DNA of 64,000 bases, taken from NCBI GenBank assembly GCA_038245785.1, contig JBBRSB010000003.1, forward strand, positions 138,750 through 202,749. Reading direction: 5' to 3'. Positions 11,373 to 33,239 of this stretch are shown here, piece after piece; position 1 is the stretch's first letter; every line of letters begins with the position of its first letter. Origin of the DNA: Gloeobacterales cyanobacterium (GTDB lineage Bacteria > Cyanobacteriota > Cyanobacteriia > Gloeobacterales > PMM-0068). A program made the position numbers and the translations under genes. The notes under the pieces are model-generated. The model was not told where the DNA came from. It did not search any database and saw only the letters and a list, made by a program, of their open reading frames with translations.

Positions 11373-11637
11373 CCTTGCTTTTCTCCTGATGAAATCTGGA
11401 CTGCAATAAACTTTGAGAGGCACTAAAACAGCCAGTCTTTTAAACTTGATGAGTCAACAAAAATAGTCATCAAATACCGATAGAAATCAGTTTAAAACAC
11501 ATAAATAATGCATTGAGATTCACAGAGTGACTATGCAAAGCAAAACATTCTGTATCATCTTTTTTCATCTGTAGAGCTCAATCACAACTCAGTAACAGTA
11601 GCAATTGAAGTTTAATCAGACTTACAAAGCAGCACAA

Positions 11638-12096: not shown

Positions 12097-14337
12097 ATGA
12101 ATTTTGACTTCCATCGCTATAAGACTTACGGAGGGATCCGCATATCGCGCTCCGTTTCCAAGGTCGATCAAGACACGGCAATTGACCACGTGCGGTCGCA
12201 GCTCAATGTCCAGCGGGGAGCCTTGCTGTCTAGCAGCTATGAGTATCCAGGACGGTATAAGCGCTGGGCAATCGGTTTTATCAACCCGCCTCTGGAGCTG
12301 TCTACGCGCGGAAACACCTTTAAGCTGACGGCCCACAACGAGCGCGGGGCATTACTGCTCCCTTTGTTGGCAGAGCGACTACAGGCGCAGGCGCAAATCC
12401 AGCACGTGCAGAGGGCGCAGTACACGATTGAAGGCGCGATTGTCCCTGTCACAGAACCCTTTGCCGAAGAGGAACGCAGTCAGCAGCCATCCGCGTTCAG
12501 CGTCATTCGCGCGCTGCTGGATTTGTTCGCCAGTCCGGAAGATGAACACTTGGGGCTCTATGGTGCCTTTGGCTATGATTTGGTCTTTCAATTTGAACCG
12601 ATTCAACAAGCGCTGCAACGTCCAGCGGATCAGCGCGACTTGGTACTGTACCTACCCGATGAGCTAATCGTTGTCGACTACTACCTGCAGCAGACTTTAC
12701 GCTACACCTATGATTTTGAGACTGCCCATGGCAGCACCTCTGGTTTGGCGCGCACGGGCGAGGTGATCGACTACCGAGGCACCAGTGTTATCGATCAGCA
12801 AAGCGTGCCCTCGACACCTTCGACACCCGTATCTGGAGCCTATGCTGCCCAAGTTGAAGAAGCCAAGAAGTATTTCTGTCGGGGCGACCTCTTCGAAGTC
12901 GTGCTCAGTCAACAATTCTCCACTGCTTGTCAAGCATCCCCCGTCCAACTCTTCCAGACGCTTCAGCAAATCAACCCCAGCCCCTATGGTTTTCTACTCA
13001 ACCTCGGCGGTGAGTATCTGATTGGAGCCTCGCCTGAGATGTTTGTGCGCGTGGAAGGCAAGCGCGTGGAGACCTGCCCGATTAGCGGCACGATTCTGCG
13101 CGGGCAAGACGCCATGGGAGATGCCGAGCAAATTCGTCAGCTGCTCAACTCCTATAAGGACGAGACGGAACTAACGATGTGTACGGATGTCGACCGCAAC
13201 GACAAATCGCGCGTCTGTATTCCTGGCAGCGTGAAGGTGATTGGTCGTCGTCAAATTGAGCTATACAGCCATGTGATTCACACGGTCGATCATGTGGAAG
13301 GCATTCTGCGACCGGAATTTGATGCCCTGGATGCTTTTTTGTCCCATACCTGGGCCGTCACGGTCACAGGTGCTCCGAAGCGGGCGGCGATGCAGTTTAT
13401 CGAACGTCATGAAGACAGTGCGCGGCGATGGTATGGCGGTGCCGTCGGACGCCTTACGTTTAATGGCGATATGAATACGGGCTTAACGCTGCGCACCATC
13501 CGCTTTCAGAATGCGGTCGCAGAAGTTCGGGTCGGTGCTACTCTACTCTACGATTCCGTTCCCGAGGATGAAGCGCAAGAGACCTTGACCAAGGCAGCAG
13601 CTTTATTTGAGACCTTGAATAAAGCTGCCACCGGGGCTTTCGTTCCGCCAAAAGTCCGTCGAGGCGTTCCCATCGCAAGCAGTGAGGCGCAAGCCAGAGC
13701 CAGTTCAGGCAAGCGCGTTCTTTTGATTGACTACGAGGATTCTTTTGTCCATACCCTGGCGAATTACATCCGCCAAACCGGGGCGACGGTCACTACTTTA
13801 CGTCATGGTTTCTCCGTAGAGACCTTTGAGCGTGAACGTCCCGATCTAGTTGTGCTCTCTCCAGGACCGGGCAGACCGAACGACTTTCATGTTCCGCAAA
13901 CGGTCCGAGATTGCATCCAGCGGCAAATCCCTCTATTTGGCGTGTGCCTAGGTCTGCAGGGAATTGTCGAAGCCTTGGGTGGAACGCTGGGCGTTCTGAA
14001 CCCACCGCAGCACGGCAAGTCCTCTGAATTAAGGGTTACGGACCAAGAGTCTGCCCTGTTCCAAGGATTGCCTGAAGTATTTCCAATCGGGCGCTACCAC
14101 TCGCTCTATGCCCTGCCTGAGCGGCTCCCTGGGGATCTTAAGGTCACGGCGCTATCTCAGGACAACGTAATCATGGCCGTTGAGCATCGTCATCTACCAA
14201 TTGCGGCAGTGCAGTTCCATCCTGAATCGATCATGACTTTAGCCGGAGATGTGGGTTTGGCCATTATCCAGAACGTGCTCCAGACCTATGCCACAGCGTC
14301 TACGACCATAGAGGCAAGGCCAACTCCTGTGCGCTGA
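12097..14337 (+). CDS. trpE: Fused anthranilate synthase, components I and II (TrpE-TrpG)
   Basis: 746 aa. The N-terminal ~520 aa is a chorismate-binding TrpE (…GASPEMFVRV…, …TGAPKRAAMQFIE…). The C-terminal ~200 aa is a glutamine amidotransferase (…LFGVCLGLQGIVEA…, …AAVQFHPESI…). Confidence 0.9.
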   Translation: MNFDFHRYKTYGGIRISRSVSKVDQDTAIDHVRSQLNVQRGALLSSSYEYPGRYKRWAIGFINPPLELSTRGNTFKLTAHNERGALLLPLLAERLQAQAQIQHVQRAQYTIEGAIVPVTEPFAEEERSQQPSAFSVIRALLDLFASPEDEHLGLYGAFGYDLVFQFEPIQQALQRPADQRDLVLYLPDELIVVDYYLQQTLRYTYDFETAHGSTSGLARTGEVIDYRGTSVIDQQSVPSTPSTPVSGAYAAQVEEAKKYFCRGDLFEVVLSQQFSTACQASPVQLFQTLQQINPSPYGFLLNLGGEYLIGASPEMFVRVEGKRVETCPISGTILRGQDAMGDAEQIRQLLNSYKDETELTMCTDVDRNDKSRVCIPGSVKVIGRRQIELYSHVIHTVDHVEGILRPEFDALDAFLSHTWAVTVTGAPKRAAMQFIERHEDSARRWYGGAVGRLTFNGDMNTGLTLRTIRFQNAVAEVRVGATLLYDSVPEDEAQETLTKAAALFETLNKAATGAFVPPKVRRGVPIASSEAQARASSGKRVLLIDYEDSFVHTLANYIRQTGATVTTLRHGFSVETFERERPDLVVLSPGPGRPNDFHVPQTVRDCIQRQIPLFGVCLGLQGIVEALGGTLGVLNPPQHGKSSELRVTDQESALFQGLPEVFPIGRYHSLYALPERLPGDLKVTALSQDNVIMAVEHRHLPIAAVQFHPESIMTLAGDVGLAIIQNVLQTYATASTTIEARPTPVR

Positions 14338-16168: not shown

Positions 16169-17410
16169 TTGACCAGTATTCTAACTAACAGTACGCACCC
16201 AACCGCTCAGACTCAACGTCCTGATGCCCTCGGTCGATTCGGACCGTTTGGCGGCAAATACGTCCCAGAGACGCTGATGCCTGCCCTGGCCGAACTTGAA
16301 GACGCCGTTCAGCAATGCCGCGCCGACGCTACTTTTCAAGCAGAACTGCATCAGCTTCTACATGACTATGTGGGCCGACCCAGCCCGCTCTATTTTGCCG
16401 AACGCCTAACGGCGCACTACGCCCGCCCTGATGGCACAGGCCCGCAAATCTATCTCAAACGAGAGGACCTAAATCATACGGGGGCGCACAAAATTAATAA
16501 CGCCGTCGCCCAAGCGCTGCTGGCAAAGCGGATGGGAAAACAGCGCGTCATTGCTGAAACGGGAGCAGGCCAACATGGGGTTGCAACGGCAACCGCCTGT
16601 GCTCGTTTTGGACTCAGCTGCGTGATTTACATGGGCATCCACGACATGAAGCGACAGGAGCTGAACGTGTTTCGGATGCGCTTGCTCGGGGCGGAAGTAC
16701 GACCTGTTGAGGCCGGTACCGGTACGCTCAAGGATGCAACCTCCGAAGCGATCCGCGATTGGGTCACAAACGTGGAAACGACTCACTATATCCTCGGGTC
16801 GGTAGCAGGGCCTCATCCTTACCCGATGATTGTGCGTGACTTTCATGCCGTGATTGGGAAAGAAACCCGTGTTCAATGCCAGGAGCATTGGGGAGGACTG
16901 CCGGATATTCTGCTGGCCTGCGTCGGCGGCGGCTCAAATGCGATCGGCCTGTTTCATGAGTTCATCGACGAACCGACCGTGCGGCTGATCGGGGTAGAAG
17001 CAGCGGGAGAGGGCATCGACACGCAGAAGCACGCTGCCACCTTGACCCTGGGACGCGTCGGCGTACTGCACGGAGCGATGAGCTACCTGCTGCAAGATGA
17101 AGACGGTCAAATCATCGAACCCCATTCAATTAGCGCTGGACTCGACTATCCCGGTGTCGGGCCAGAGCATAGCTATCTCAAGGACGCACGCCGCGCCGAA
17201 TATTACAGCGTTACGGATACTCAGGCACTCGCTGCTTTCCAGCAGCTTGCGCAACTTGAAGGCATCATTCCAGCGTTAGAAACTGCCCATGCCGTCGCCT
17301 ATTTGGAAACGCTCTGCCCTCAGATGAGAGACAGTCCTCGGATTGTGCTCAACTGCTCTGGGCGAGGCGATAAGGATGTGCAAACCGTGATTAACACGCT
17401 GGATCTCTAA
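16169..17410 (+). CDS. trpB: Tryptophan synthase beta chain
   Basis: 413 aa with [25 protein letters not shown] and GGGSNAIG. The apparent start is TTG at 16169, with GGGAGG 8 nt upstream. The nearby ATG 16143 is in another frame and terminates after 9 codons. Confidence 0.9.
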
Positions 17411-20790: not shown

Positions 20791-22023
20791 TCAGTTGATC
20801 GCTAGTCGGATAGTCACTACCGTTCCAACACCAATCTGACTAACCCAATCAATTTCCCCACCGTGCATATCTACAAGATTTTTAGCAATGGACAGTCCCA
20901 GCCCAAGTCCTGGAACTTTTTCAATGTTGCTACCCCGAAAAAAAGGCTCAAATAGATGTTCCTGATCGACTTCTGACATTCCAATGCCAAAATCCTGAAT
21001 TTGGATACTGACCAACTGATTATGGCAAGCAAGATTAAAGTAAATAGTGCTGCCCATGGGTGAATACTTGATTGCATTATCAAGTACATTCTCCAGCGCT
21101 ATATAAAACAGCTCTGGGTCGAAGTTGAACATCAACCTGTCTTCTAGCAAGCCATTGGATTGGCATTCAAACTCAATTGTCTGTTGACTATCAGCAATCG
21201 CTGCCTGCTTCTCAGCGATTAAATCACGGCAGAAGCCAACTATGTCTAGAGATTTTGTATTTGGTTCCAGTTTCCGAGCAGCTGATTCGCTAAGGAGTGA
21301 AATTTTATCTAAAAGTTGAACAATTTGATCGACCGCAGATTGAATATGCATCAGATAGGGCTGAGTTTGTGCTGCTGTCCATTGATTTAGATTGCGGTCT
21401 AGTAAGCTGTTTGAGAAGGAAATAACATTGAGTAAGGAACGGAATTGGTGGCAGATAGCAGTATTCGGGTCGTTGATCTGCTCTGGCTCTCCGAGCGCTT
21501 GTCCCTCTGTACTGTCTAGCGGTAGCACTTTTTGTAAGTGTTTAAACTTCGTGATGTCCCACACATTCCAGACCCGACCAATGACTTTACGGCCCAACCG
21601 TTGCGGAGAAGCACTGTGCATAAAGAGCCTGCCATCCTGCAACTCTAGGACATCAGAGCTATCTGTCTCCAATTGGGTGGAAGCTTCCCAGATGGCGTTG
21701 CGGAAGACTTCTGGATTTTTGACTTGGTTCTCAAAAAAAGCTCTCGCTCGATCGCAGTCCCGTGACAACTCTACTGAATCTGGAAGCTGCCACATTTCTG
21801 CAAATTGGTGATTGAAGTAGAAAGCTTTAGCATCACTGTCCATCGCAAGAATGCCAATATCAGTGGATGCAACCCTTGCCCGTAGTAAGGCTAAAGTTCT
21901 CTCCAGGTCCGCTTCAGTCCTATCCACCCTGGGAGTTTCTTGAGATAAAACCATCACGGTGGCCACTGAATCAGATTGAGAACGCTCTTGTTCAAAGCGC
22001 TTGTGGTCGCGGTGAGAAGACAT
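20791..22023 (-). CDS. PAS-domain sensor histidine kinase
   Basis: 410 aa with a PAS-like region (GILAMDSDAKAFYFNHQFAEMWQL...). It has the H-box ICHQFRSLLNVI, the N-box LENVLDNAIKYS, G1 IQDFGIGM and G2 GLGLGLSIAKN. It lies immediately upstream of, and co-directional with, the regulator. Confidence 0.85.
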   Translation of the reverse strand: MSSHRDHKRFEQERSQSDSVATVMVLSQETPRVDRTEADLERTLALLRARVASTDIGILAMDSDAKAFYFNHQFAEMWQLPDSVELSRDCDRARAFFENQVKNPEVFRNAIWEASTQLETDSSDVLELQDGRLFMHSASPQRLGRKVIGRVWNVWDITKFKHLQKVLPLDSTEGQALGEPEQINDPNTAICHQFRSLLNVISFSNSLLDRNLNQWTAAQTQPYLMHIQSAVDQIVQLLDKISLLSESAARKLEPNTKSLDIVGFCRDLIAEKQAAIADSQQTIEFECQSNGLLEDRLMFNFDPELFYIALENVLDNAIKYSPMGSTIYFNLACHNQLVSIQIQDFGIGMSEVDQEHLFEPFFRGSNIEKVPGLGLGLSIAKNLVDMHGGEIDWVSQIGVGTVVTIRLAIN

Positions 22024-22839: not shown

Positions 22840-23766
22840 ATGCTTATTTTTTCTACTGAGGTCCATGAGGATACCCGTGGGATTCGGGATTTGCTGCAAC
22901 ACTGGTTATCTTCACAACTCTCGCCTGAGGCCCTTGTCTGGCTGAAGACTGCCATCTCGCAATCGTGCCAAGCATTTTCAGAGCAGACTTTTTTCACTGC
23001 TTTCAGCACCCTGCCACGCCGAGTGGGAAAACACGATCTGGCGCTTACTAGTGCTGAATTAGCGCAGGCCGATAACCTGTGTCCAGGCTGGTATCCCAAG
23101 GCATGGAGCGTTGACCAGGCGGCGCGTGCGCTGCTCTTGCTCAGTCTGCCCCAGGCAGAGACGGGCTCGATGAACGAGCTCTTTGAGAAACTGTACGCTA
23201 CTGCTGGCATGGCAGAAGCGGTGGCACTGCACCAGACTTTGCCCCTGCTAGGTCATGGTGAACGCTATGAATACTGGGCCTTAGAGGGAGTTCGGAGTCA
23301 CATCACGGCTGTCTTTAATGCGGTTGCACTCTGGAACCCCTATCCGGCTCGTCAATTTGATCAGGCAACCTGGAATCAACTGGTGTTGAAGGCCATTTTT
23401 GTAGGTAGTCCCTTGTACCCCATCTGGGGACTGGATGCTCGAGCGAATCCTGAACTAGCGCGGATGCTGATCGACTATGTTCATGAGCGATGGGCAGCCC
23501 ATCGGGAAGTGACGCCGGAACTATGGCGCTTGCTAGCCCCGTTTATTGATCAGATCGACCAGGCGGTGCTACTCGATTTAGCACGAGCCCTAAAGTCAGC
23601 GAACGAGACTCAACGCCAAGCGGTGGGTTTGGCCTGTGTTCAATCGGCGCTTCCGAGCGCTCTAGACTTACTTCAAGTGCATCCCGACTTGAACAGATTA
23701 ATTCAGGCAGGAACGCTAACTTGGGAGAGCATTTACCGTAACCAGCTGCAAATCAGTGCAAGCTGA
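22840..23766 (+). CDS. eboA: EboA-like protein (first gene of the ebo cluster)
   Basis: 308-aa helical protein with no enzymatic motif I recognise. It is called from its position directly upstream of the TatD / UbiA / DHQS-like / TIM-barrel / phosphodiesterase gene series. Confidence 0.6.
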   Translation: MLIFSTEVHEDTRGIRDLLQHWLSSQLSPEALVWLKTAISQSCQAFSEQTFFTAFSTLPRRVGKHDLALTSAELAQADNLCPGWYPKAWSVDQAARALLLLSLPQAETGSMNELFEKLYATAGMAEAVALHQTLPLLGHGERYEYWALEGVRSHITAVFNAVALWNPYPARQFDQATWNQLVLKAIFVGSPLYPIWGLDARANPELARMLIDYVHERWAAHREVTPELWRLLAPFIDQIDQAVLLDLARALKSANETQRQAVGLACVQSALPSALDLLQVHPDLNRLIQAGTLTWESIYRNQLQISAS

Positions 23767-23778
23767 CGGTCCTGCTTA

Positions 23779-23821
23779 TCGAAAAAATGGACGCTTTGTC
23801 GAAAACATGTCGAAAAAATGG
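23779..23821. promoter_or_regulatory. Three direct copies of TCGAAAA(A/C)ATG(G) in the eboA-eboB spacer
   Basis: tcgaaaaaatgg at 23779-23790, tcgaaaacatg at 23799-23809 and tcgaaaaaatgg at 23810-23821. They lie in a 230-bp gap inside an otherwise tightly packed cluster. Confidence 0.35.
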
Positions 23822-23996
23822 TCCTTGCACTGTCTTTGAAGTCTTATTAAGCTCTGGCTTAGGGAAATAAGGCAAAAGCTCAACAGCTCTGACCCTATAC
23901 ACAGGTTCTTAGGAGCTTGCAGGTGACAAAGGCTGGTTTTGCCTGTTCTTTTCCCAATTTAGGCGCATAGTTCCTCGCACTTATTCAGGTCATCCC

Positions 23997-24935
23997 ATGC
24001 CAGATAGCGCTCCTCCCATCTCCCGGCCCAAGATCTGGATTGATCCACACATCCATATGACGTCCCGTACGACCTATGACTACCGTTTGATGAGGCAGCA
24101 AGGAATCGTGGCTGTTATTGAGCCGTCCTTTTGGCTGGGGCAGCCTCGCACCAACGTCGGGACATTTCAGGACTACTTCAGCAGTCTGGTGGGCTGGGAA
24201 CGCTTCCGAGCCGGACAGTTTGGCATTCGCCACTACTGCACCATCTGCCTCAACCCAAAGGAAGCGAATAATCCTGCGATTGCCGATGAGGTAATGGCCA
24301 TGCTTCCTCTCTATCTATGCAAGGAGGGCGTTGTGGCCGTTGGTGAAATTGGCTACGACTCGATGACAGCGGCAGAGGACAAGTATTTCAGACTGCACTT
24401 AGAGATGGCAAAGGAATTCAAAAAGCCTGTCCTGGTCCACACGCCCCATCGGAACAAGAAGGAAGGAACCTTGCGCAGCTTAGAAGTCTGCCTGGAGCAT
24501 GGCATCGATCCAAAGCTGGTAGTGATAGACCATGCCAACGAAGAGACTGTCCAGGCCATTCTCGATCGAGGCTTTTGGGCAGCGTTTTCGATCTATCCAA
24601 AGACCAAGATGGGCAATGAACGAATGACTGAAATTGTTCGGCAGTATGGTTCCGAGCGAATCATCGTCAATAGTGCAGCCGACTGGGGAATCAGCGACCC
24701 TCTGGCTGTACCGAAAACGGCTCAACTGATGCTGGAGCGAGGGATTCCTGAGGCCGATGTGACGGCAGTCTGCTATGGCAACGCGCTGGCAGCCTATAGC
24801 CAAAGCGGTGAAATGAGCGAAGCGGACTGGCTCAGTCCAGAACCCGTGGACCAACGGCAGCTTTTCGATGGCAACTCAGTGCTTCGGGGCCAGGAACCGA
24901 TAACACAAGAAGCAGAGTCGCTCGTTATTGTCTAA
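23997..24935 (+). CDS. eboB: EboB, TatD-family metal-dependent hydrolase
   Basis: 312 aa with WIDPHIHMTSRT (HxH metal site), VAVGEIGYD, VLVHTPH and VIDHAN, which are typical TatD-like amidohydrolase-fold motifs. Confidence 0.8.
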   Translation: MPDSAPPISRPKIWIDPHIHMTSRTTYDYRLMRQQGIVAVIEPSFWLGQPRTNVGTFQDYFSSLVGWERFRAGQFGIRHYCTICLNPKEANNPAIADEVMAMLPLYLCKEGVVAVGEIGYDSMTAAEDKYFRLHLEMAKEFKKPVLVHTPHRNKKEGTLRSLEVCLEHGIDPKLVVIDHANEETVQAILDRGFWAAFSIYPKTKMGNERMTEIVRQYGSERIIVNSAADWGISDPLAVPKTAQLMLERGIPEADVTAVCYGNALAAYSQSGEMSEADWLSPEPVDQRQLFDGNSVLRGQEPITQEAESLVIV

Positions 24936-25013
24936 GGTTGGTGTTTTGAACTTCTGAGCTAGAAAGAGGTGCTATGACCGCGCCCAATTCCGAATTGCAT
25001 CAGAGGGAAGCAG

Positions 25014-25925
25014 ATGATTTCAGCGCAGAGTACGACAAACCGCTTGGTGGCCTATCTTCAGATGATGCGTCCTGCCAATATTGTGACGGCGTGGGCAGAT
25101 ATTCTGGCAGGCTATGCGGCAGCGGGTTTAGGAGCTATTACTCCTGACCCTACGGCTATCTACCCCTTGCTCTGGCTGCTGTTAGCCACAACCGGGCTGT
25201 ACGGAGGCGGGGTTGTATTCAACGACGTGTTCGACGCCAAGCTGGATGCCCAAGAGCGTCCCGAGCGTCCGATTCCCAGTGGCCGCAGTTCGGTGCAAGA
25301 AGGCATCGTTCTGGGCATCGGTTTACTGACCCTTGGCATTGTGGCAGCGGCCCAGGTATCAGCGATCAGTGCGGGGATAGCAGTCGCGATTGCCCTGGCA
25401 GCGCTGCTATACGATTCCGTGGGTAAACACCACGCTCTGATAGGCCCCCTGAATATGGGGCTGTGTCGGGGTGGAAACCTGTTGCTGGGCGTGAGCGCCG
25501 TGCCTGTAATGCTCCAAGAGCGCTGGTTTTTGGCAGCGATTCCGGTCTTATACATTGCGGCGATTACGCTGATCAGTCGCGGTGAAGTGCATGGTGGAAA
25601 TCGAATGGCTGGACAAGTTTCTCTGGTGGCCTTGGCCCTGGTGTGCGCCGGGTTAATTGGGCTAAGCCTGTTGCCCAGCTATGGACTACTGCCGATGCTG
25701 CCCTTCGGGGTGTTTTGGGGAATATCGGTGATTCCAGCCTTTGTCAAAGCTAGCCGTGAACCCAGTGCTGCCCTAATTCGCCATGCAGTCCGCTCGGGAG
25801 TAATCTCCCTGATCGTCCTCAATAGTGCCCTTGCAGCAGGCTTCAGCCACTGGCTTTATGGTTTAGCGGTTTTAAGCTTGTTGCCCCTATCTCGATTTTT
25901 AGCTAAACAATTTGCGGTGACCTAG
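25014..25925 (+). CDS. eboC: EboC, UbiA-family prenyltransferase
   Basis: 303 aa and polytopic. The motif NDVFDAKLDAQERPERPIPSG is the UbiA Asp-rich motif (NDxxDxxxD). Confidence 0.85.
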   Translation: MISAQSTTNRLVAYLQMMRPANIVTAWADILAGYAAAGLGAITPDPTAIYPLLWLLLATTGLYGGGVVFNDVFDAKLDAQERPERPIPSGRSSVQEGIVLGIGLLTLGIVAAAQVSAISAGIAVAIALAALLYDSVGKHHALIGPLNMGLCRGGNLLLGVSAVPVMLQERWFLAAIPVLYIAAITLISRGEVHGGNRMAGQVSLVALALVCAGLIGLSLLPSYGLLPMLPFGVFWGISVIPAFVKASREPSAALIRHAVRSGVISLIVLNSALAAGFSHWLYGLAVLSLLPLSRFLAKQFAVT

Positions 25926-27134
25926 ATGTATCTCAGCCTGAGCAGTCCGCCCCAGTTCCTAGAATCAACATTGAAACCGCTGCAGCAGTCTATAACGGTT
26001 CGGTTTGACTATTCAGTGCACTTCACCCATGGCCTGTTTCAGTTACACAATCCCCTGCTGGCAGAGATATTAGCGGCTGAGCAGACAACGCAACCAGCTG
26101 CCGTACTGGTCATTATCGACGGCGGTCTCCTATCATCCCAACCGCAACTACTAGAGAAAGTAACAGCCTACGCTGAGCATTACCAACAGGCGATTTGCCT
26201 CAAAGCCGTGCCCTTGGTCGTAGTCGGGGGAGAGGCAGCCAAGAACGATCCAGCCTGTGTGGAGCAGATTCAGCGACTGATCAGTGAGGCCCGCTTATGC
26301 CGGCATTCCTATGTCGTGGTGATTGGGGGTGGAGCTGTTTTAGATATGGTCGGTTATGCTGCAGCCACTGCCCATCGCGGAGTGCGTCTTATCCGAGTGC
26401 CAACGACAGTACTGGCCCAAGATGACTCTGGAATCGGCGTAAAAAATGGGGTTAATGCCTTTGGCAAGAAGAATTTCCTAGGTACGTTTGCTCCACCCTA
26501 TGCCGTTATTAATGACGCGGACTTTCTGCGAACGCTGGGTCAGCGGGATTGGATAGCCGGAGTAATAGAAGCGCTTAAAGTAGCGTTGATTAAAGATGCG
26601 GACTTTTTTCAGTACATCGAGGCCAACACAAACGCCTTGGTCAAGCGTGAACTGTCGGTCATGCAACAGGTCATCTATCGCTCTTGCCAACATCACTTGC
26701 ATCATATCGGCAGCTATGGCGACCCGTTTGAAATGGGTTCATCGCGCCCCCTCGACTTTGGGCACTGGGCCGCCCATCGCCTGGAGCATTTGACGAACTA
26801 TCGTCTCCGACATGGCGAAGCAGTAGCGATCGGTATTGCCCTCGATAGCACCTATGCCTGCTTTGCCGGACTGCTGCCAGCAGAAGACTGGACCCGGATC
26901 TTAAATGCATTGCAGGCACTGGGATTTGCACTTTATGCGCCGGAATTGGGCGCATTTTCAGAACAACCAGAGCATCCGCAGTCGATTTTTCAGGGGCTGA
27001 CTGAATTTCGAGAACATCTAGGCGGAGCGTTAACCCTAATGCTATTGGCTGGTATAGGCACTGGGGTGGAAGTGCATCAAATCAACCTGGAACTATATCA
27101 ACAGGCGATTACCTATTTGAAAGCACTGAAATGA
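25926..27134 (+). CDS. eboD: EboD, 3-dehydroquinate-synthase-like sugar phosphate cyclase
   Basis: 402 aa with VIGGGAVLDMVGYAAATAHRGVRLIRVPTTVLAQDDSGIGVKNGVN and HGEAVAIG. Its ATG abuts the eboC stop. Confidence 0.85.
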   Translation: MYLSLSSPPQFLESTLKPLQQSITVRFDYSVHFTHGLFQLHNPLLAEILAAEQTTQPAAVLVIIDGGLLSSQPQLLEKVTAYAEHYQQAICLKAVPLVVVGGEAAKNDPACVEQIQRLISEARLCRHSYVVVIGGGAVLDMVGYAAATAHRGVRLIRVPTTVLAQDDSGIGVKNGVNAFGKKNFLGTFAPPYAVINDADFLRTLGQRDWIAGVIEALKVALIKDADFFQYIEANTNALVKRELSVMQQVIYRSCQHHLHHIGSYGDPFEMGSSRPLDFGHWAAHRLEHLTNYRLRHGEAVAIGIALDSTYACFAGLLPAEDWTRILNALQALGFALYAPELGAFSEQPEHPQSIFQGLTEFREHLGGALTLMLLAGIGTGVEVHQINLELYQQAITYLKALK

Positions 27135-27669
27135 AGACCTAGCACAGGCAGGAGACCTCATGAGCGCTAACGACCGATTTCATCTCACTTACTGCACAAA
27201 CACCGATTCCGGCGAGACGTGGCAAGCGGTTTGGACCAATCTGCAGCGACCTATGCCCGGGCTAAAGCAATCACCATCACCGGACCAACCCTTTGGCATT
27301 GGCTTGCGCTTAGCGAATCTGGCCAGTCAAGAACTTCTGGTCAATAGACGGCTTACTGACCTCAAAGCGCGGCTGGCGGCAGAAAAGATCTATGCTTTCA
27401 CCCTGAATAGTTCTCCCTATGGCAGCTCCCATCATCACGTGAGAAGAGATCAGGTCTATAAACCGGATTGGAGCACAGTAGGACGGCTCTTACACACGAG
27501 GCGATTGGCACGGATTCGAGCAAAGCTGCTACTGGACGGAACGGAGAGCCATATTTCCAACCTACCGCATTCCTGCAAGCCCTGGTTTTTCGGCATCCCA
27601 GAAGCGCGGGCTCTGGTATTTCAGTCGAGTACTGTGGCCCTCACGACCTTAGTCATGAATCTGGTCAAT
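26862..27669 (+). repeat. Tandem duplication unit, copy 1 (eboD 3' end + spacer + diverged eboE-like 5' part)
   Basis: It begins at tttgccggactgctgccagc (26862) and ends at ...atgaatctggtcaat (27669). It is colinear with 27670-28489. Confidence 0.85.
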
Positions 27670-27990
27670 TTTGCTGGACTGCTGCCAGTGGAAGACTGGG
27701 TGCGGATCTTGAAAGCATTGCAGGCACTGGGATTTACGCTACACGTGCCAAAATTGGGCGCATTTTCAGAAGAACCAGAGCGTCTGCAGTCGGTTTTCCA
27801 AGGGCTGACTGAATTTCGAGAACATCGAGGGGGAAAGTTAGCCCTAAGGCTATTGGCCGGTATCAGCGCTGGGGTGGAAGTGCATCAAATCAACCTGGCC
27901 CTGTATCAGCAGACGATTGCCTGTTTGCAAGTACTGGACCAGAGACCTCTAGAGTTTCCAGCACAGCGCAGGAGATCTCATGCGTATTAA
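27160..27990 (+). CDS. Chimeric ORF: diverged EboE N-terminal ~170 aa fused to a diverged EboD C-terminal ~90 aa
   Basis: 276 aa. Residues 1-170 (MSANDRFHLTYCTNTDSGETWQAVWTNLQ...) parallel EboE 1-170 (MRINDRFHLTYCTNTHPGETWQAVWTNLQ...). From FAGLLPVEDWVRILKALQALGF... it parallels the EboD C-terminus (FAGLLPAEDWTRILNALQALGF...VEVHQINLELYQQAI). It keeps an AGGAG Shine-Dalgarno sequence. It may be a duplication by-product (pseudogene) or a retained gene. Confidence 0.6.
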   Translation: MSANDRFHLTYCTNTDSGETWQAVWTNLQRPMPGLKQSPSPDQPFGIGLRLANLASQELLVNRRLTDLKARLAAEKIYAFTLNSSPYGSSHHHVRRDQVYKPDWSTVGRLLHTRRLARIRAKLLLDGTESHISNLPHSCKPWFFGIPEARALVFQSSTVALTTLVMNLVNFAGLLPVEDWVRILKALQALGFTLHVPKLGAFSEEPERLQSVFQGLTEFREHRGGKLALRLLAGISAGVEVHQINLALYQQTIACLQVLDQRPLEFPAQRRRSHAY

Positions 27991-28489
27991 CGACCGATTT
28001 CATCTTACCTACTGCACAAACACTCATCCTGGCGAGACGTGGCAAGCGGTTTGGACCAATCTTCAGCAATATTTGCCTGGGCTGAAGCAGTCGCTATCAC
28101 CGGATCAACCGTTTGGTATTGGCTTGCGCTTAGCAGATCTGGCCAGTCGAGAACTTTTGGTGGGCGACCGACTGGCGAAGCTTAAAGCGTGGCTGGAGAC
28201 AGAGAATCTCTATGTCTTTACCCTGAATGGTTTTCCCTACGGCAGTTTCCATCACCAAGTCATAAAAGACCAGGTCTATGCTCCAGATTGGACCACGGTC
28301 GAGCGGCTAGAGTACACAAGGCGATTGGTAAAAGTTCTAGCAGAGCTGCTGCCGGAAGGGATGGAAGGCAGTATTTCCACCCTACCGCTCTCCTACAAGC
28401 CTTGGTTTTTCGGTACGCCAGAAGCGCTGGATCCCGTATTTCAGTCGAGTGCCGTTGCCCTCGCGGCCTTAGTGATAGATCTGGTCAAT
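27670..28489 (+). repeat. Tandem duplication unit, copy 2 (diverged eboD 3'-like part + spacer + authentic eboE 5' part)
   Basis: It begins at tttgctggactgctgccagt (27670) and ends at ...atagatctggtcaat (28489). The unit is ~12 bp longer than copy 1 because of indels around the former eboD stop and spacer. Confidence 0.85.
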
Positions 28490-29227
28490 CTCCAGGCGAA
28501 AACAGGCAAACTAATTCATCTGGGCCTCGAACCGGAGCCAGATGGACTTTTGGAAAACACGCAGGAAGTGGTGACCTTTTTCGATCGCTGGCTTTTGCCC
28601 TGCGGGAGCACAGAACTTATGCAGCACTTCGGGATCTCTAACGACAAGGCTCTAGCGTGTCTGCGCAACCACCTCCGAGTCTGCTACGACACCTGTCACT
28701 TTGCCGTGGAATATGAAGAGCCTGAAATCGCCCTACGCCAGTTGCAAGAGGAAGGAATTGGAGTCAGCAAAATTCAACTCAGTTCAGCGGTGCGCATTCC
28801 AATTCCGGCTGAGCTAGCAGAACGTCAAGCGATTTTACAGCGACTACAGCCCTTTGCCGAATCGACCTATCTGCACCAGGTGATCGCCAGACAGCCAGAC
28901 GGCAGGCTGAAAACAGACGGCAGGCTGAAACGGTACCGTGATTTAGAGCAAGCGCTACCAGAATTCCTGACAACAGACGCAGCGGAGTGGCGTACCCATT
29001 TCCATGTCCCCATTTTTCTCCAAGACTATTCGCTGCTGCAATCAACGCAGGAACATCTTGTAAAAACCTTGTCTTATCTGCAGGCATTTCCCCTCTCTAG
29101 CCATCTCGAAATCGAAACCTATACCTGGGACGTATTGCCCGCCGACATCAAGTTTAATCTCGCCCACTCGATTCAACGCGAGTATGACTGGGTGCTGCAG
29201 CAATTGCGGATTCCAATCGTGGTTTAG
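27980..29227 (+). CDS. eboE: EboE, TIM-barrel (xylose-isomerase-like) protein
   Basis: 415 aa at the position and size of eboE. N-terminus MRINDRFHLTYCTNTHPGE; internal HLGLEPEPDG and CYDTCHF are typical of the xylose-isomerase-like TIM-barrel fold. Confidence 0.75.
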   Translation: MRINDRFHLTYCTNTHPGETWQAVWTNLQQYLPGLKQSLSPDQPFGIGLRLADLASRELLVGDRLAKLKAWLETENLYVFTLNGFPYGSFHHQVIKDQVYAPDWTTVERLEYTRRLVKVLAELLPEGMEGSISTLPLSYKPWFFGTPEALDPVFQSSAVALAALVIDLVNLQAKTGKLIHLGLEPEPDGLLENTQEVVTFFDRWLLPCGSTELMQHFGISNDKALACLRNHLRVCYDTCHFAVEYEEPEIALRQLQEEGIGVSKIQLSSAVRIPIPAELAERQAILQRLQPFAESTYLHQVIARQPDGRLKTDGRLKRYRDLEQALPEFLTTDAAEWRTHFHVPIFLQDYSLLQSTQEHLVKTLSYLQAFPLSSHLEIETYTWDVLPADIKFNLAHSIQREYDWVLQQLRIPIVV

Positions 29228-29276
29228 TCCGTCACAGCCAATCTACACCTAACCTTTTCACCCAAGCTCCTAACCG

Positions 29277-30650
29277 ATGATGCAAAGAACCGCTGTCCTG
29301 AATGTTGTTGGACTGACTCCCGCTTGCCTCGGTGCTCATATGCCGAAGCTGACAGCTTGGGCAGTACGGGGGCAACAAGCGAACATCACACCGATGCTGC
29401 CAGCGGTGACCTGTAGCGTTCAAGCGACCTATCTCACCGGCAAATATCCCAATGAGCACGGCATTGTCGCCAATGGTTGGTACTTTCGAGATGAGTGTGA
29501 GGTGAAATTTTGGAGACAGTCTAATGCTCTGGTACAGGCTCCAAAAATCTGGGAGATTGCCCGAGAAAGGGATCTCACCTTCACCTGCGCCAACTTGTTC
29601 TGGTGGTACAACATGTACTCCTCCGTCGACTACGCCGTCACACCACGCCCTATGTATCCAGCAGATGGGCGTAAGCTACCGGATATCCATACCCACCCAG
29701 CCGCTATCCGTCCTAAGCTTCAAGAGGAACTTGGGCCATTTCCTTTATTCAAGTTCTGGGGGCCGGCAACGACGATTGAATCCAGTCAGTGGATTGCGAA
29801 TTCAGCAAAGTGGATTGAAACAAACGCCAGTCCGACGCTCTCGCTGGTATACCTACCCCATCTGGACTATTGCACCCAGAAAGTGGGCTCTACTCCAGCG
29901 CAGGACCTCCAGGAAATCGATGCCGTAGTCGGAGATCTGATTGAGTTCTACGAGGCAAGAGGGGTACAGCCTGTCGTCCTCTCTGAATATGGCATTACGC
30001 CCGTTTCTCAGCCAGTGCACCTGAACCGAATGCTGCGCTCAGCGGGATTCCTCCAAGTTCGGACAGAGTTGGGCTTAGAACTACTGGATGCAGGGGCTAG
30101 TCAAGCGTTTGCTGTTGCTGACCATCAGCTAGCCCATGTCTACATCAATGACCCCACCATTTTGGAGCAGGTGAAGGCACTTTTAGAGAAAACGCCAGGC
30201 GTAGCAAGGGTATTAGATGAGGCTGGCAAGCAGGAACAGTATCTAAACCACGAACGTTCAGGTGAACTAGTGGTCATCGCCGAACCGCAAGCCTGGTTCA
30301 CCTACTACTACTGGCTTGACGACACCAAGGCTCCCGACTTCGCCCGAACCGTCGATATTCACCGAAAACCAGGATATGACCCTGTGGAACTGTTTTTCGA
30401 TCCCCAAATTCGTTTCCCCAAGCTAAAGGTTGCGAAAACGTTGCTCAAGCGCAGATTAGGAATGCGATCGCTGATGGACCTGACTCCGCTGAATGCCGAT
30501 TTGGTGCGCGGATCTCACGGCCATCTACCAGGTTCATCAAGAGACTGGCCAATGGTGATTACACAGAGGTCAGAGCTCTTACAAAGTGCCTCTATCTCTG
30601 CTGTCGATGTCTGTTCCCTGATTCTGAATCATTTGAACTTGAGCCCCTAA
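29277..30650 (+). CDS. eboF: EboF, nucleotide pyrophosphatase/phosphodiesterase (alkaline-phosphatase superfamily)
   Basis: 457 aa with VLNVVGLT...MLPAVTCSVQATYLTGKYPNEHGIVANGW (Thr nucleophile region) and VRGSHG near the C-terminus. Confidence 0.8.
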   Translation: MMQRTAVLNVVGLTPACLGAHMPKLTAWAVRGQQANITPMLPAVTCSVQATYLTGKYPNEHGIVANGWYFRDECEVKFWRQSNALVQAPKIWEIARERDLTFTCANLFWWYNMYSSVDYAVTPRPMYPADGRKLPDIHTHPAAIRPKLQEELGPFPLFKFWGPATTIESSQWIANSAKWIETNASPTLSLVYLPHLDYCTQKVGSTPAQDLQEIDAVVGDLIEFYEARGVQPVVLSEYGITPVSQPVHLNRMLRSAGFLQVRTELGLELLDAGASQAFAVADHQLAHVYINDPTILEQVKALLEKTPGVARVLDEAGKQEQYLNHERSGELVVIAEPQAWFTYYYWLDDTKAPDFARTVDIHRKPGYDPVELFFDPQIRFPKLKVAKTLLKRRLGMRSLMDLTPLNADLVRGSHGHLPGSSRDWPMVITQRSELLQSASISAVDVCSLILNHLNLSP

Positions 30651-30791
30651 TCCCTCATGTGATAGCTCCCTGAGCGGAGTCGTGTCTGGCACAAGGTACC
30701 TGCTGCCGTAGGCAGATTGAACAGGTAGGCGAAGCCGAGAAGGGAGCTTGTTCCGGAAACAGAAGGATTGATTGGATTTGGCTACATCTTG

Positions 30792-30827
30792 CTACAGCCC
30801 AACCACAGCCCGGAATTGTTTATCCTC
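30792..30827 (-). pseudogene. Orphan copy of the last ~11 codons + stop of the TPR gene at 31962
   Basis: ctacagcccaaccacagcccggaattgtttatcctc matches 31962-31997 (ttacagcccaaccaaagcccggaactgtttatcctc) at 33 of 36 positions. The minus frame reads EDKQFRAVVGL*, against EDKQFRALVGL* in the gene. Confidence 0.6.
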
Positions 30828-30863
30828 TGTCTCAGCTATCGCATCGCAAGCTTAGCGATCACT

Positions 30864-31109
30864 CTACACTTCACTGCGAGCCAGATTCAACAGTTTACCC
30901 TGAACAGATTCCATTTTGGAATCTCGGATGTACGTACTGGCATTGATGCTTTCCACGCCAATTAACTCTCCGGATGCATTCAGTTCAGCAGTGATATTCG
31001 GGCTAATTTCAACACTTGCTGATTCTGGCTCTTCGGAGATGAGCAGATGAAGAATATCCTCTTCTCTGAAGTAATTCATTTGTGGCAATGTTTGCTTATT
31101 GTCAGACAT
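30864..31109 (-). CDS. DUF2283-family small protein
   Basis: 81 aa: ...YFREEDILHLLISEEPESASVEISPNITAELNASGELIGVESINAS.... This is the typical DUF2283 pattern (YD.E.D.L.I....... , ....D....G.I.GIEI..AS). Confidence 0.65.
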   Translation of the reverse strand: MSDNKQTLPQMNYFREEDILHLLISEEPESASVEISPNITAELNASGELIGVESINASTYIRDSKMESVQGKLLNLARSEV

Positions 31110-31276
31110 TTGGGATAAACCGTCCAGTTTTTAGACGAAATCGAATTTGTTGTCGAGTTGTGGCGTGAGTTGTAATCGGTGTAATTATATTTTTATAGAG
31201 ATATTAGTCATGGATTTTTCTCTCTTTTTCTTACTTTGCCAGTAAGTAATTAGCTTCTGCATGAACCAGGATAGAA

Positions 31277-31861
31277 CTAGCTGTGCCCCATGTTTAACCA
31301 ACCAAACACTTGATTGACCGTGAGGGTTAGATCTAGTTCGGGCAAGGCCGGAAGAACTTGATTCCCCTGACACAGGATGGGCTGTTGCCGAGGCAGTAAA
31401 ACTAAAATACTGAGATCATCCGGGTCAACAAACCAACCCATACGGCTGCCATGCTCTAGACAATGAAGCAGATTCCCCAGCACTTTGTTTGGCCCCTGTT
31501 GGGGGGAAAGAATTTCAATCGTCCAATCTGGTGGAAGGTCAAAGTTGTCCGGAACATCACCCTCGGGGGTGAAAGGGATACGATCCCACCGAAAGATAGC
31601 CACATCGGGAACGATCGATCGCCCTGCAAAGCTACATCTCAATTCTGGGAATGCATAGGCAATCTTTGGCTCCTCAGCAACTTGATTGATCGCTGCACAG
31701 AGCTTTGCCTGCAAACGGCTATGTCTTCCTTTTGGCATGGGCTTCTGAATCACCTGTCCGTCGATGTATTCACGCGCAGGTTTGGTTTCTGGCAGTTCCA
31801 GAAATTCCTGCAATGTCAACGGTTTGGAGCGTGCTTGTGTCATTCGGATCGCCTGCAACAC
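31277..31861 (-). CDS. Uma2-family (DUF820) putative endonuclease
   Basis: 194 aa with LTLQEFLELPETKPAREYIDGQVIQKPMPKGRHS...PDVAIF...PDWTIEILSP. The start could instead be the internal ATG at 31843. Confidence 0.85.
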   Translation of the reverse strand: MLQAIRMTQARSKPLTLQEFLELPETKPAREYIDGQVIQKPMPKGRHSRLQAKLCAAINQVAEEPKIAYAFPELRCSFAGRSIVPDVAIFRWDRIPFTPEGDVPDNFDLPPDWTIEILSPQQGPNKVLGNLLHCLEHGSRMGWFVDPDDLSILVLLPRQQPILCQGNQVLPALPELDLTLTVNQVFGWLNMGHS

Positions 31862-31961
31862 AACAAGGCTAATTCCACAATTTATTGTATGCGATTCTCA
31901 CGATGCGAGGTTTGATTTAGCTGTCTGGTTCGCTTTGAGGATAAGGAAAACACCGAGCGAT

Positions 31962-33239
31962 TTACAGCCCAACCAAAGCCCGGAACTGTTTATCCTCCCG
32001 AATGTTATCAAAGTCGGAATCTGTTTTTGCTACCTCTCGAGACTTTGCATATAAATCAATTGCCCGTCGCAAATTCTCGATCGCTGCTTTGAATTCTTTC
32101 TTTAAGCTATAGGCACAAGCTTTTTTGTAGTAAGCCTCAGCATAATCAGGCTTGAGCTTAAGGGCTTGGTTGTAGTCTACGATTGCTTGAGTATAGTTGC
32201 CCTGCGTAGAGTAAACACTCCCCCTAGTGTAATAGCCCTCAGCATGGTTCGGCTCGAGCTTAAGAGCTTGGTTGAAGTCTACAATCGCATTCTTATAATC
32301 GCTTTTGGAGTAGTAGGAGATTCCACGAAAAAAGTAAACTGCCTCCTGCCCCAGGGTTGTCACTGGCTCCTTCACCTGCTCCAGCGCAGACGTGAATCGA
32401 ACAATTGCCCCTTCTCAATCCGATTTTGCATATTGCACCATTCCCAGACTGAAAAGCGTAAGGTAGCTCATCTCTTTGAAGAGCCGAGTTTGCAGGTTAA
32501 AGCTATTCAGTTCAGCAATCGCTGAAGTTTGGGCTTTTCCTTTGGCTGTTTCTTCTAGCTCAGGAAAATAATCTGGAGGTTTCATCACCTCAAAGTGAAC
32601 GCTGACTTGTACATTTATTGGAGTGACACCATAATCACCCCAAATCACGATCGATGCTTTCTGCTGATCGCCTATGGCACGGGCGCTTTGCTTTTCAGTG
32701 ATGGTTTGGTTCAGCTCTTTCACCTCGACATCCGTATAGTGTTTAGTAGCTTCTTCCAGGTTTTTCCGAATGTTTTTTGCTACCCGATACCTCTTCGGCT
32801 CAACGCCATCAAAATCAGCAACCAGAACAATAATGTCTTTGGGAGGAAGGTTCTGGACATAAAACCAGTCTGCAACACCAGAAAGACTAAGAATTGGGAT
32901 CATAATTAGTCCAGTATTGGCCAATCGACGAATCCATTTCCGATTTTGTTTTTCTTTTGCCTGGGCTTTCACTTGCGCATCTGACAGCGACAAAAATCCC
33001 GATTGCCCCTTATCCTGTTGTTCTGGCTTACATAAGCGGGCGTAGTAAAGGCAGATACTCAGTAATAGTAAAATTCCAACAGTCAGCGAAATCAGCGCAA
33101 GCAATCCAGCATCTTTATCGGCGAAAAGCTTGAAAAGTCCATAAACAACAAGAATAAACGAGATAACTGACGAGACGGGGGTACTAAGATTCTTTAGAAA
33201 CGTCCCCAAGCTAGGGTTGGAGTCATTGCCACTGCCCAT
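31962..33239 (-). pseudogene. Membrane-anchored TPR-repeat protein interrupted by a single in-frame TGA
   Basis: ORFs 32415..33239 and 31962..32375 are in the same frame, separated only by TGA at 32415-32417. The read-through sequence ...LGMVQYAKSD*EGAIVRFTSALEQ... forms a TPR-like repeat paralleling the downstream YSKSDYKNAIVDFNQALKL. Confidence 0.7.

Follow-up and report, generated by a model that had tools for sequence, protein, structure and literature searches.

What is the additional open reading frame (ORF) between eboD and eboE in the ebo cluster of a Gloeobacterales cyanobacterium, and how did it come to stand there? We addressed this question for a 64,000-nt stretch of assembly GCA_038245785.1 (contig JBBRSB010000003.1, positions 138,750 to 202,749 of the forward strand), which is referred to as the window and numbered from its first letter. 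The ebo cluster is widespread and well described (PMC5133447, PMC6282210), and connections to scytonemin export and thallusin have been reported, although its chemistry has only begun to be elucidated. In the window, it extends over 22840-30650 on the plus strand as judged by ORF calls, Pfam, and NCBIfam, with eboA, eboB, eboC, eboD, eboE, and eboF all present on this strand and in canonical order. The extra cistron between eboD and eboE is a chimeric ORF of 276 aa (27160-27990, plus strand; provisionally 'eboX'), in which the first part of EboE is followed by the last part of EboD. The best explanation overall, and one we hold to be probable, is an ancient duplication that gave rise to a selected, non-catalytic accessory or adaptor gene of the Ebo pathway.

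A repeat search of the window revealed three colinear direct-repeat blocks with start-to-start spacings of 808 or 820 nt and identities of 76-86% (26862-27140 vs. 27670-27948, 84%; 27148-27341 vs. 27968-28161, 86%; 27361-27660 vs. 28181-28480, 76%). Gapped local alignment of 26862-27669 with 27670-28489 gave 652 identical positions in 824 columns (79.1%) and four small gap blocks, and blastn scored the same pair at 711 bits (E = 0.0). Three methods therefore recovered the colinear tandem copies that a first-pass annotation, made from the sequence, had seen across the eboD/eboE junction, and a lack of similarity between them is contradicted; likewise, the earlier estimate that one position in five differs, too many for a recent assembly repeat, agrees well with 79% identity. 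In the 60 nt flanking the units, identity amounts to only 28% and 23%, i.e., chance level, and similarity stops at the unit borders. The approximately 0.8-kb repeat is absent from the output of Tandem Repeats Finder, as its period exceeds the longest period considered there (500 nt). Unit 1 (26862-27669, 808 nt, plus strand) comprises the eboD 3' end (last 91 codons, 26862-27134), the spacer with a ribosome-binding site (RBS), and chimera codons 1-170, which are a diverged copy of the eboE 5' end. Unit 2 (27670-28489, 820 nt, plus strand) comprises a diverged copy of the eboD 3' end (chimera codons 171-260), the former spacer, which is now coding and includes the eboE RBS, and eboE codons 1-170. 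The units are thus adjacent, colinear, and arranged head-to-tail, as is characteristic of a tandem duplication with a join point: eboD (25926-27134) and eboE (27980-29227) are whole, and the hybrid joins a 5' part of eboE to a 3' part of eboD in frame. All three ORF calls agree with those of the first-pass annotation.

The junction (AAT/TTT, 27667-27672, plus strand) fuses eboE codon 170 in frame to eboD codon 311, and the breakpoint ctggtcaat|tttgc is read at 27669/27670, where it had been placed before. Codons 1-170 (27160-27669) encode the EboE-derived (beta-alpha)1-4 half barrel, codons 171-260 (27670-27939) the EboD-derived C-terminal segment (EboD 311-400), and codons 261-276 (27940-27987) a 16-aa read-through tail over the former stop and spacer. 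Profile matches to NCBIfam reflect the same division, with chimera residues 9-169 matching EboE model positions 1-156 and residues 170-263 matching positions 307-398 of the EboD-type dehydroquinate synthase (DHQS). The former stop of the eboD copy is now CAG (Gln261, 27940-27942), where the matching site of unit 1 has TGA, and the chimera frame therefore continues to a TAA stop at 27988-27990. The stop loss with a frame reaching the eboE start had been described from the sequence, as had the residue changes NTHPGE to NTDSGE and GFPYGSFHHQVIKDQVY to SSPYGSSHHHVRRDQVY and the retained RBS; all of these readings are correct. The RBS (AGGAG, 27150-27154, plus strand) lies 5 nt 5' of the chimera ATG, and a similar purine-rich motif (AGGAG or GGAG) precedes the chimera in all five full-length loci described below. 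At its 3' end (27970-27990, plus strand), the chimera contains the RBS (AGGAG, 27970-27974) and ATG (27980) of eboE. Its TAA ends 8 nt past this ATG, resulting in an 11-nt overlap of both ORFs (ATGCGTATTAA in the window) that is kept in five of five full-length loci and is compatible with an arrangement suited to translational coupling.

Two minor observations concern the borders of the chimera. The spacer between eboD and the chimera varies between 21 and 49 nt among lineages, with a constant overlap of chimera and eboE; in locus L001 (5949-6003), it has 49 nt compared to 25 nt in L004, and the additional 24 nt result from a repeat of the motif AAGCACTGAAA, which spans the eboD end. Breakpoint codon 170 of the window eboE (28487-28489) is AAT (Asn), as in the chimera, whereas every other eboE has AAA or AAG (Lys) at this site, which might be due to chance or to gene conversion over a very short tract.

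Searches for further copies covered 5.8 billion proteins and, in an exhaustive HMMER pass, 1.84 billion cluster representatives. The former revealed four further full-length chimeras (P0002-P0005) of 275-276 aa with 75-88% identity over 100% of the query, and all remaining matches were ordinary EboE or EboD proteins that align to one half only. Contigs with full-length chimeras derive from one NCBI metagenome-assembled genome (MAG), three JGI metagenomes, one ENA assembly, and two Logan assemblies. By looking up other eboD proteins of the clade, we identified two more loci with an intact chimera, as well as a sixth lineage with a partial ORF that begins right after eboD and runs off the contig end. 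The chimeric ORF is thus present in five species-level lineages besides the window (one of them partial), with the same breakpoint and, on every contig examined, between eboD and eboE; among the clade members sampled, none lacks it. In the two nearest outgroups, L015 and L017, eboE directly follows eboD and there is no chimera, while L015 has the same upstream sensor-kinase/eboA neighbourhood as the window. Exactly one cluster of full-length chimeras was found among the 1.84 billion representatives, which argues that the family is confined to this clade. An alignment-based scan of genome contigs returned only distant EboE genes from Bacteroidota and Acidobacteriota in a collection from which the clade is absent, and scans of metagenome contigs with peptide patterns and with the junction-specific 28-mer TAGTCATGAATCTGGTCAATYTTGCTGG gave no matches. 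The host itself can be placed by GyrA (41060-43606, minus strand), which is 94-96% identical to metagenome proteins and 71% identical to its best named match, from Gloeobacter violaceus (other cyanobacteria 67-69%). It therefore belongs to an uncultured, poorly sampled cyanobacterial lineage, yet one with a scytonemin and ebo supercluster.

One further protein of 276 aa, P0179 from the representative library, was considered as a second chimera of the same kind and rejected, as it has no EboD part. Its EboE N-terminal half (profile positions 1-163) continues into a tail of about 100 residues without a match to EboD or EboE. This tail resembles, by eye, a CorA-type N-terminal region, and the protein may be the result of a truncation, a rearrangement, or a chimeric assembly.

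All orthologues share the junction at the same codon (GTC AAT | YTT GCT), with microhomology of at most 1-2 nt. In neighbour-joining trees, the EboE-derived chimera halves form one clade (bootstrap 100%), as do the EboD-derived halves (98%), and both clades branch from inside the eboE and eboD genes of the host clade itself, later than the separation of L015 (bootstrap 100% and 99.8%). Each half therefore derives from the host lineage's own parent gene, and a single ancestral duplication follows from the nesting of both halves in the parents' tree. A chimera resembles the parent gene of its own genome no more closely than those of other genomes, which excludes concerted evolution. Gene conversion between chimera and parents, raised by the low dS of the EboD-derived half in the window (0.27), was rejected, as the window chimera resembles the eboD of L007 at least as closely as its own. 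Identity between lineages is 84-96% for flanking genes and 79-90% for the chimera, i.e., the sampled lineages are largely at species-level divergence, and the duplication is therefore older than their radiation. That a single ancient duplication really took place is, in our opinion, beyond reasonable doubt. In the common ancestor of this small clade, one in-frame tandem duplication of approximately 0.8 kb comprised the 3' end of eboD, the spacer, and the 5' end of eboE. Both eboD and eboE were spared, and the join made a new gene from EboE 1-170, EboD 311-400, and the 16-aa tail translated from the spacer. This gene inherited the duplicated eboE RBS and ends 8 nt into eboE, hence its position as a cistron of the operon. 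On the stem branch, its amino-acid sequence changed in a burst (omega of about 1-2), after which purifying selection has acted along the full length in every sampled lineage.

As a separate observation on this locus, the last 90 eboD codons are near-identical in L004 (4767-5975) and L007 (1-1026), with a dS of 0.03 and 98% identity over the whole gene, whereas a divergence of 7-10% is seen in the neighbouring genes, a pattern suggestive of recent recombination between lineages.

Selection was analyzed by two approaches. Pairwise comparison of the chimera orthologues by the Nei-Gojobori method (NG86) gave ratios of nonsynonymous to synonymous substitutions (dN/dS) of 0.24 for the EboE-derived and 0.28 for the EboD-derived half, and the parents reached 0.14 (EboE) and 0.15 (EboD) over the same columns at a mean dS of approximately 0.4. 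We complemented these values by a codon model of the Goldman-Yang type (F3x4, branch-specific omega) written for this analysis. Omega was 0.33 and 0.47 in the chimera crown (EboE- and EboD-derived half, respectively), 0.19 and 0.27 in the background of parents and outgroups, and 0.85 and 1.97 on the stem after the duplication. For the crown, omega = 1 was rejected in both halves (twice the log-likelihood difference 55.5, p = 9.5e-14, and 14.2, p = 1.6e-4), while stem omega was not distinguishable from 1 in either. A species-constrained topology produced the same picture, which makes dN/dS below 1 in both halves robust to topology; the ratio is not near 1, the value named in the first-pass annotation, in combination with absent expression, as an argument for a pseudogene. 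In every 30-codon segment of the chimera, dN/dS lies between 0.12 and 0.48, and the largest losses of constraint relative to the parents concern the NGFPYGSFHHQV loop, where the ratio rises from 0.01 in the parent to 0.23 in the chimera, and the C-terminal hairpin of EboD (from 0.03 to 0.24). Variable sites are distributed over the three codon positions as 62/52/124, and the three indels among orthologues are each 3 nt long. The ORF is intact at 275-276 aa in all five full-length orthologous lineages and their close variants. In a neutral simulation, 4.9% of lineages retained an open 275-codon ORF at 0.1 substitutions per site, a share that dropped to 0.5% at 0.2, and five intact lineages are therefore incompatible with drift. 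Judged from these sequence patterns, the chimera is very probably maintained as a translated protein-coding gene.

To characterize the predicted product, its two segments were compared with the parental proteins. EboD (402 aa) is a DHQS-like sugar-phosphate cyclase (PRK06203, 586 bits) that matches solved DHQS structures, e.g., 5eks (E = 7e-43). According to PMC12904256 and a thallusin preprint, EboD has been shown to be a mannose-6-phosphate cyclase. EboE (415 aa) is a xylose-isomerase-like TIM barrel (TIM_EboE, 491 bits), for which no solved relative was detectable by sequence. An AlphaFold2 model of the window EboE, built from a 71-sequence alignment, reached a predicted local distance difference test (pLDDT) score of 94.8 and matched xylose isomerases (E = 2e-7) and related sugar isomerases/epimerases in Foldseek. 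In this model, the chain runs through beta-1 (residues 7-12), alpha-1 (21-39), beta-2 (45-50), alpha-2 (53-74), beta-3 (77-83), alpha-3 (107-123), beta-4 (129-134), alpha-4 (147-175), and beta-5 (178-183), after which the rest of the eight-stranded barrel follows. Breakpoint residue 170 is five residues short of the alpha-4 end, just before beta-5, and the chimera therefore holds precisely the (beta-alpha)1-4 half of the barrel; the term 'EboE half-barrel' chosen in the first-pass annotation is apt. The barrel is incomplete in a specific manner, as the family-invariant residues E184, D237, H240, H299, H340/H342, and E377/E379 are all located beyond residue 170 and hence missing from the chimera. 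We take these residues to be metal ligands by analogy with xylose-isomerase-like barrels. The EboD-derived part starts immediately behind the HGEAVAIG helix, is limited to the final 90 residues, i.e., the final helices and the hairpin, and is devoid of the nucleotide- and metal-binding parts of EboD. Against the family models, the chimera scored 133.9 bits for TIM_EboE (NF035939; cut-off 250, profile positions 1-156 of 379) and 68.4 bits for the EboD-type DHQS (NF004852; cut-off 333, positions 307-398 only), which places it outside both families, and no Pfam domain, DHQ_synthase and DHQS_C included, was reported for it. Because beta-5 to beta-8 with their conserved acidic and histidine residues are missing together with the nucleotide- and metal-binding parts of EboD, and H16, Y112, L120, and T134 have been lost from the retained half, the product is very likely non-catalytic and not an enzyme of either parental kind.

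Comparison at the residue level used trimmed-segment alignments; when full-length EboE and EboD were aligned with the chimera globally by MAFFT, EboE C-terminal halves were forced onto EboD columns, and this alignment was discarded. We considered 42 positions of the EboE N-terminal half as family-conserved, i.e., present in at least 90% of 71 EboE sequences. All five chimeras keep 29 of them and 13 are changed, including near-invariant H16, invariant Y112, L120, and T134, as well as G84, F85, and P125, whereas the EboE proteins of the hosts keep 42 of 42. The isoelectric point (pI) is 9.2-9.85 in all five orthologues, compared to 5.1-6.1 in the parental segments, and the net charge of the EboE-derived half is +7 to +9 vs. 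-4 to +1 in the parent. Charge-shifting changes were mostly fixed on the stem, which applies to W71R, L120R, M230R, E108G, and D167N, and the EboD-derived part has M230R and Y255C fixed.

What could such a protein do? In the explanation we favor, the chimera would serve the Ebo pathway as a non-catalytic, pseudoenzyme-like accessory or adaptor subunit and would bind acidic EboD and/or EboE via surfaces from both parents and its new positive charge (pI of approximately 9.5), perhaps after pairing of half barrels. An adaptor model is motivated by three features: the chimera is built from EboD and EboE surfaces, it is basic while both enzymes are acidic (pI 5.5-6.3), and natural full-length EboD-EboE fusions exist, suggesting joint action of both enzymes. 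A more detailed version, which we consider possible but doubtful, describes a selected stand-alone (beta-alpha)4 half barrel with an EboD tail, a pseudoenzyme subunit born at the gene boundary of its parents that would physically couple EboD to EboE, or cap or regulate one of them. Several findings weigh against the favored explanation. Crown omega is mildly above background (p = 0.007 and 0.04), and constraint is therefore relaxed relative to the parents. AlphaFold2 modelling of the chimera from a 32-sequence alignment resulted in a mean pLDDT of only 53.6; ten-residue block means exceed 70 only at residues 11-80 and approximately 111-120, residues 81-110 and 121-130 reach 40-65, and the EboD-derived half remains below 50. 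The structure prediction proposed in the first-pass annotation thus shows neither a confident fold of the product nor structural support for an interface. Any function would also appear dispensable for ebo clusters generally, as the gene family seems restricted to one narrow clade. Lastly, the assignment as an adaptor for EboD and EboE specifically rests on analogy and charge complementarity, and we regard it as tentative, with the chances somewhat against it.

The main rival regards the chimera as a translated spacer: the ORF would be kept open only for the passage of ribosomes to the eboE start, i.e., for coupling or the avoidance of polarity, and constraint would act against a toxic or aggregating by-product. 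The 11-nt stop/start overlap with the eboE RBS inside the chimera at five of five full-length loci fits this idea, as do omega values above those of the parents and the low AlphaFold2 confidence, most of all in the EboD-derived half. However, coupling that is independent of sequence predicts an omega of about 1 in a frame free of stops, whereas 0.33 and 0.47 were observed and all segments are below 0.5. The 29 invariant family-conserved positions and the consistent shift to a high pI are also not in line with a spacer, and a short deletion to the ancestral spacing would lift the burden, yet occurs in no sampled lineage. We therefore regard a translated spacer as unlikely. Similarly unlikely is a neofunctionalised basic protein unrelated to EboD/EboE binding, with nucleic acid, membrane lipids, or a phosphorylated or anionic intermediate as a ligand, or with a role in the regulation of scytonemin or ebo genes. 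The change in pI from approximately 5-6 to 9.2-9.85 through stem-fixed substitutions, the stem omega of about 1-2, and the vicinity of the scytonemin cluster and its sensor kinase would be explained by such a role. However, neither Pfam nor NCBIfam reveals a DNA-binding or membrane motif, stem omega is not significantly above 1, and the gene is still embedded in the ebo operon and overlaps with it.

The first-pass annotation had left open whether the ORF is a slowly decaying by-product or a retained accessory protein. Retention is borne out by the intact ORF in every sampled clade member and by dN/dS below 1 in both halves, while decay is not. A pseudogene in waiting under no selection would account for the missing catalytic halves of both parents and the loss of several family-invariant residues; it is nonetheless very improbable, since both halves reject omega = 1, every lineage has an intact ORF at a pairwise dS of 0.2-0.6, no indel shifts the frame, and a neutral ORF would survive in only approximately 0.5% of lineages. 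An equally remote idea is the insertion of the unit from a foreign ebo cluster by horizontal transfer, with the 21% divergence reflecting the distance between species. Recombination between lineages does seem to occur at the locus, given the dS of 0.03 between the eboD 3' ends of L004 and L007 compared to approximately 0.4 elsewhere. However, both halves branch within the eboD/eboE clade of their own hosts after the L015 split, the chimera tree broadly mirrors that of the parents, with L006 the most divergent in both, and the unit borders are exactly those predicted by a head-to-tail duplication. An assembly artefact, i.e., a collapsed or mis-joined repeat, has only the general risk of MAG assemblies in its favor and a negligible probability, as the same architecture is found on more than nine contigs from differing samples, sequencing centres, and assemblers with lineage-specific substitutions, and units of only 79% identity could not have been confused by an assembler.

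With an ancient duplication and a retained accessory gene as the favored explanation, the chimera can be compared to known systems. It resembles EboE ('metabolite traffic protein EboE', NF035939) in that residues 1-170 are colinear with the EboE N-terminus, with 72-79% nucleotide identity to host eboE and 67-70% local protein identity to EboE of the clade, and in its eboE-type start context and RBS. It differs by ending in alpha-4 without beta-5 to beta-8 and by being basic, whereas EboE is acidic. In residues 171-260, it is homologous to the C-terminal 90 residues of EboD, with the EFREH..GG motif and the GVEVHQINL hairpin both present, but the N-terminal nucleotide-binding domain and the metal-binding HGEAVAIG helix of EboD are missing. 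Natural EboD-EboE fusions from other organisms likewise contain sequence of both parents in one polypeptide; P0066 (827 aa) comprises a DHQS-like part (15-398) followed by EboE (429-820), both complete, and P0195 is a 225-aa fragment. However, such fusions are complete, have the order D then E, and arise via loss of the intergenic stop, whereas the chimera consists of fragments, an E-half followed by a D-tail, and coexists with both intact parents. Hybrids of a different composition, i.e., xylose-isomerase-like/EboA proteins in Actinobacteria, were noted by Yurchenko et al.

The mechanism itself is well known, and join-point fusions arise in bacterial duplications. Chimeric genes formed at the join points of boundary-spanning tandem duplications have been documented genome-wide in Drosophila (PMC4069613, PMC4503668). 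The ebo chimera shares the head-to-tail duplication, the breakpoints in adjacent genes, the intact parents, and the 5'-B/3'-A hybrid structure. Known join-point chimeras are mostly young, polymorphic, and short-lived, whereas the ebo chimera is fixed over several species-level lineages, 21% diverged from its parents, under purifying selection, and located inside a biosynthetic operon. Half barrels of the (beta-alpha)4 type have been discussed as evolutionary and folding units of TIM barrels (review PMC8250049) and searched for experimentally (PMC5770038). The EboE-derived part coincides almost exactly with beta-alpha units one to four. Half barrels known so far were either constructed in the laboratory or inferred as ancestors, whereas the chimera would be a naturally encoded, selected one with a foreign helical tail. 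To this field also belongs the work on HisF-N/HisF-C. If expressed and folded, the chimera would provide an example from nature to set beside the laboratory-made half barrels, on the basis of which an origin of (beta-alpha)8 barrels from (beta-alpha)4 units has been argued. A selected protein made of EboD and EboE pieces, together with the natural EboD-EboE fusions, points to a physical or functional coupling of both steps. Neither PMC5133447 and PMC6282210 nor the results of a full-text literature search mention an additional gene at the eboD/eboE boundary or a partial duplication, which agrees with the single HMMER cluster and with the remark in the first-pass annotation that no such insertion had been described. 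The chimera is best regarded as the seventh gene of an ebo cluster variant that is restricted to this lineage, and we found no earlier description of it. It represents a clean, datable bacterial gene birth, for which both parents and the junction can be examined together with the outgroup state and several diverged orthologues. The history of the gene, a burst of change followed by purifying selection, can therefore be read directly.

The remaining genes of the cluster are ordinary family members on the plus strand, which applies to eboA (22840-23766; EboA_family), TatD-like eboB (23997-24935; TatD_DNase), UbiA-like eboC (25014-25925; prenyl_rel_EboC, 404 bits), and phosphodiesterase-like eboF (29277-30650; Phosphodiest). 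A scan for operon promoters and terminators yielded none above shuffled expectation. Within eboE, we identified a perfect in-frame tandem duplication of 18 nt (28896-28930; CAGACGGCAGGCTGAAAA x1.9) that results in DGRLKTDGRLK. It is present in the window, L001, and L004, but not in L006, L007, and the outgroups, and falls into the internal stretch of lowest confidence in the EboE model (residues 300-320, approximately). Directly 3' of eboF (30651-32400), synteny breaks: L001 and L004 have PIN-domain toxin-antitoxin-like pairs, the window small ORFs. On the other side, the ebo cluster adjoins a scytonemin cluster with scyA (9474-11423), trpE (12097-14337), trpB (16169-17410), and the scytonemin sensor kinase (20791-22023). 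This cluster also contains an ORF of 718 aa (5002-7158, minus strand), of which residues 30-389 match the ScyD/ScyE family and residues 394-704 match ScyF, and which looks like a ScyE-ScyF fusion.

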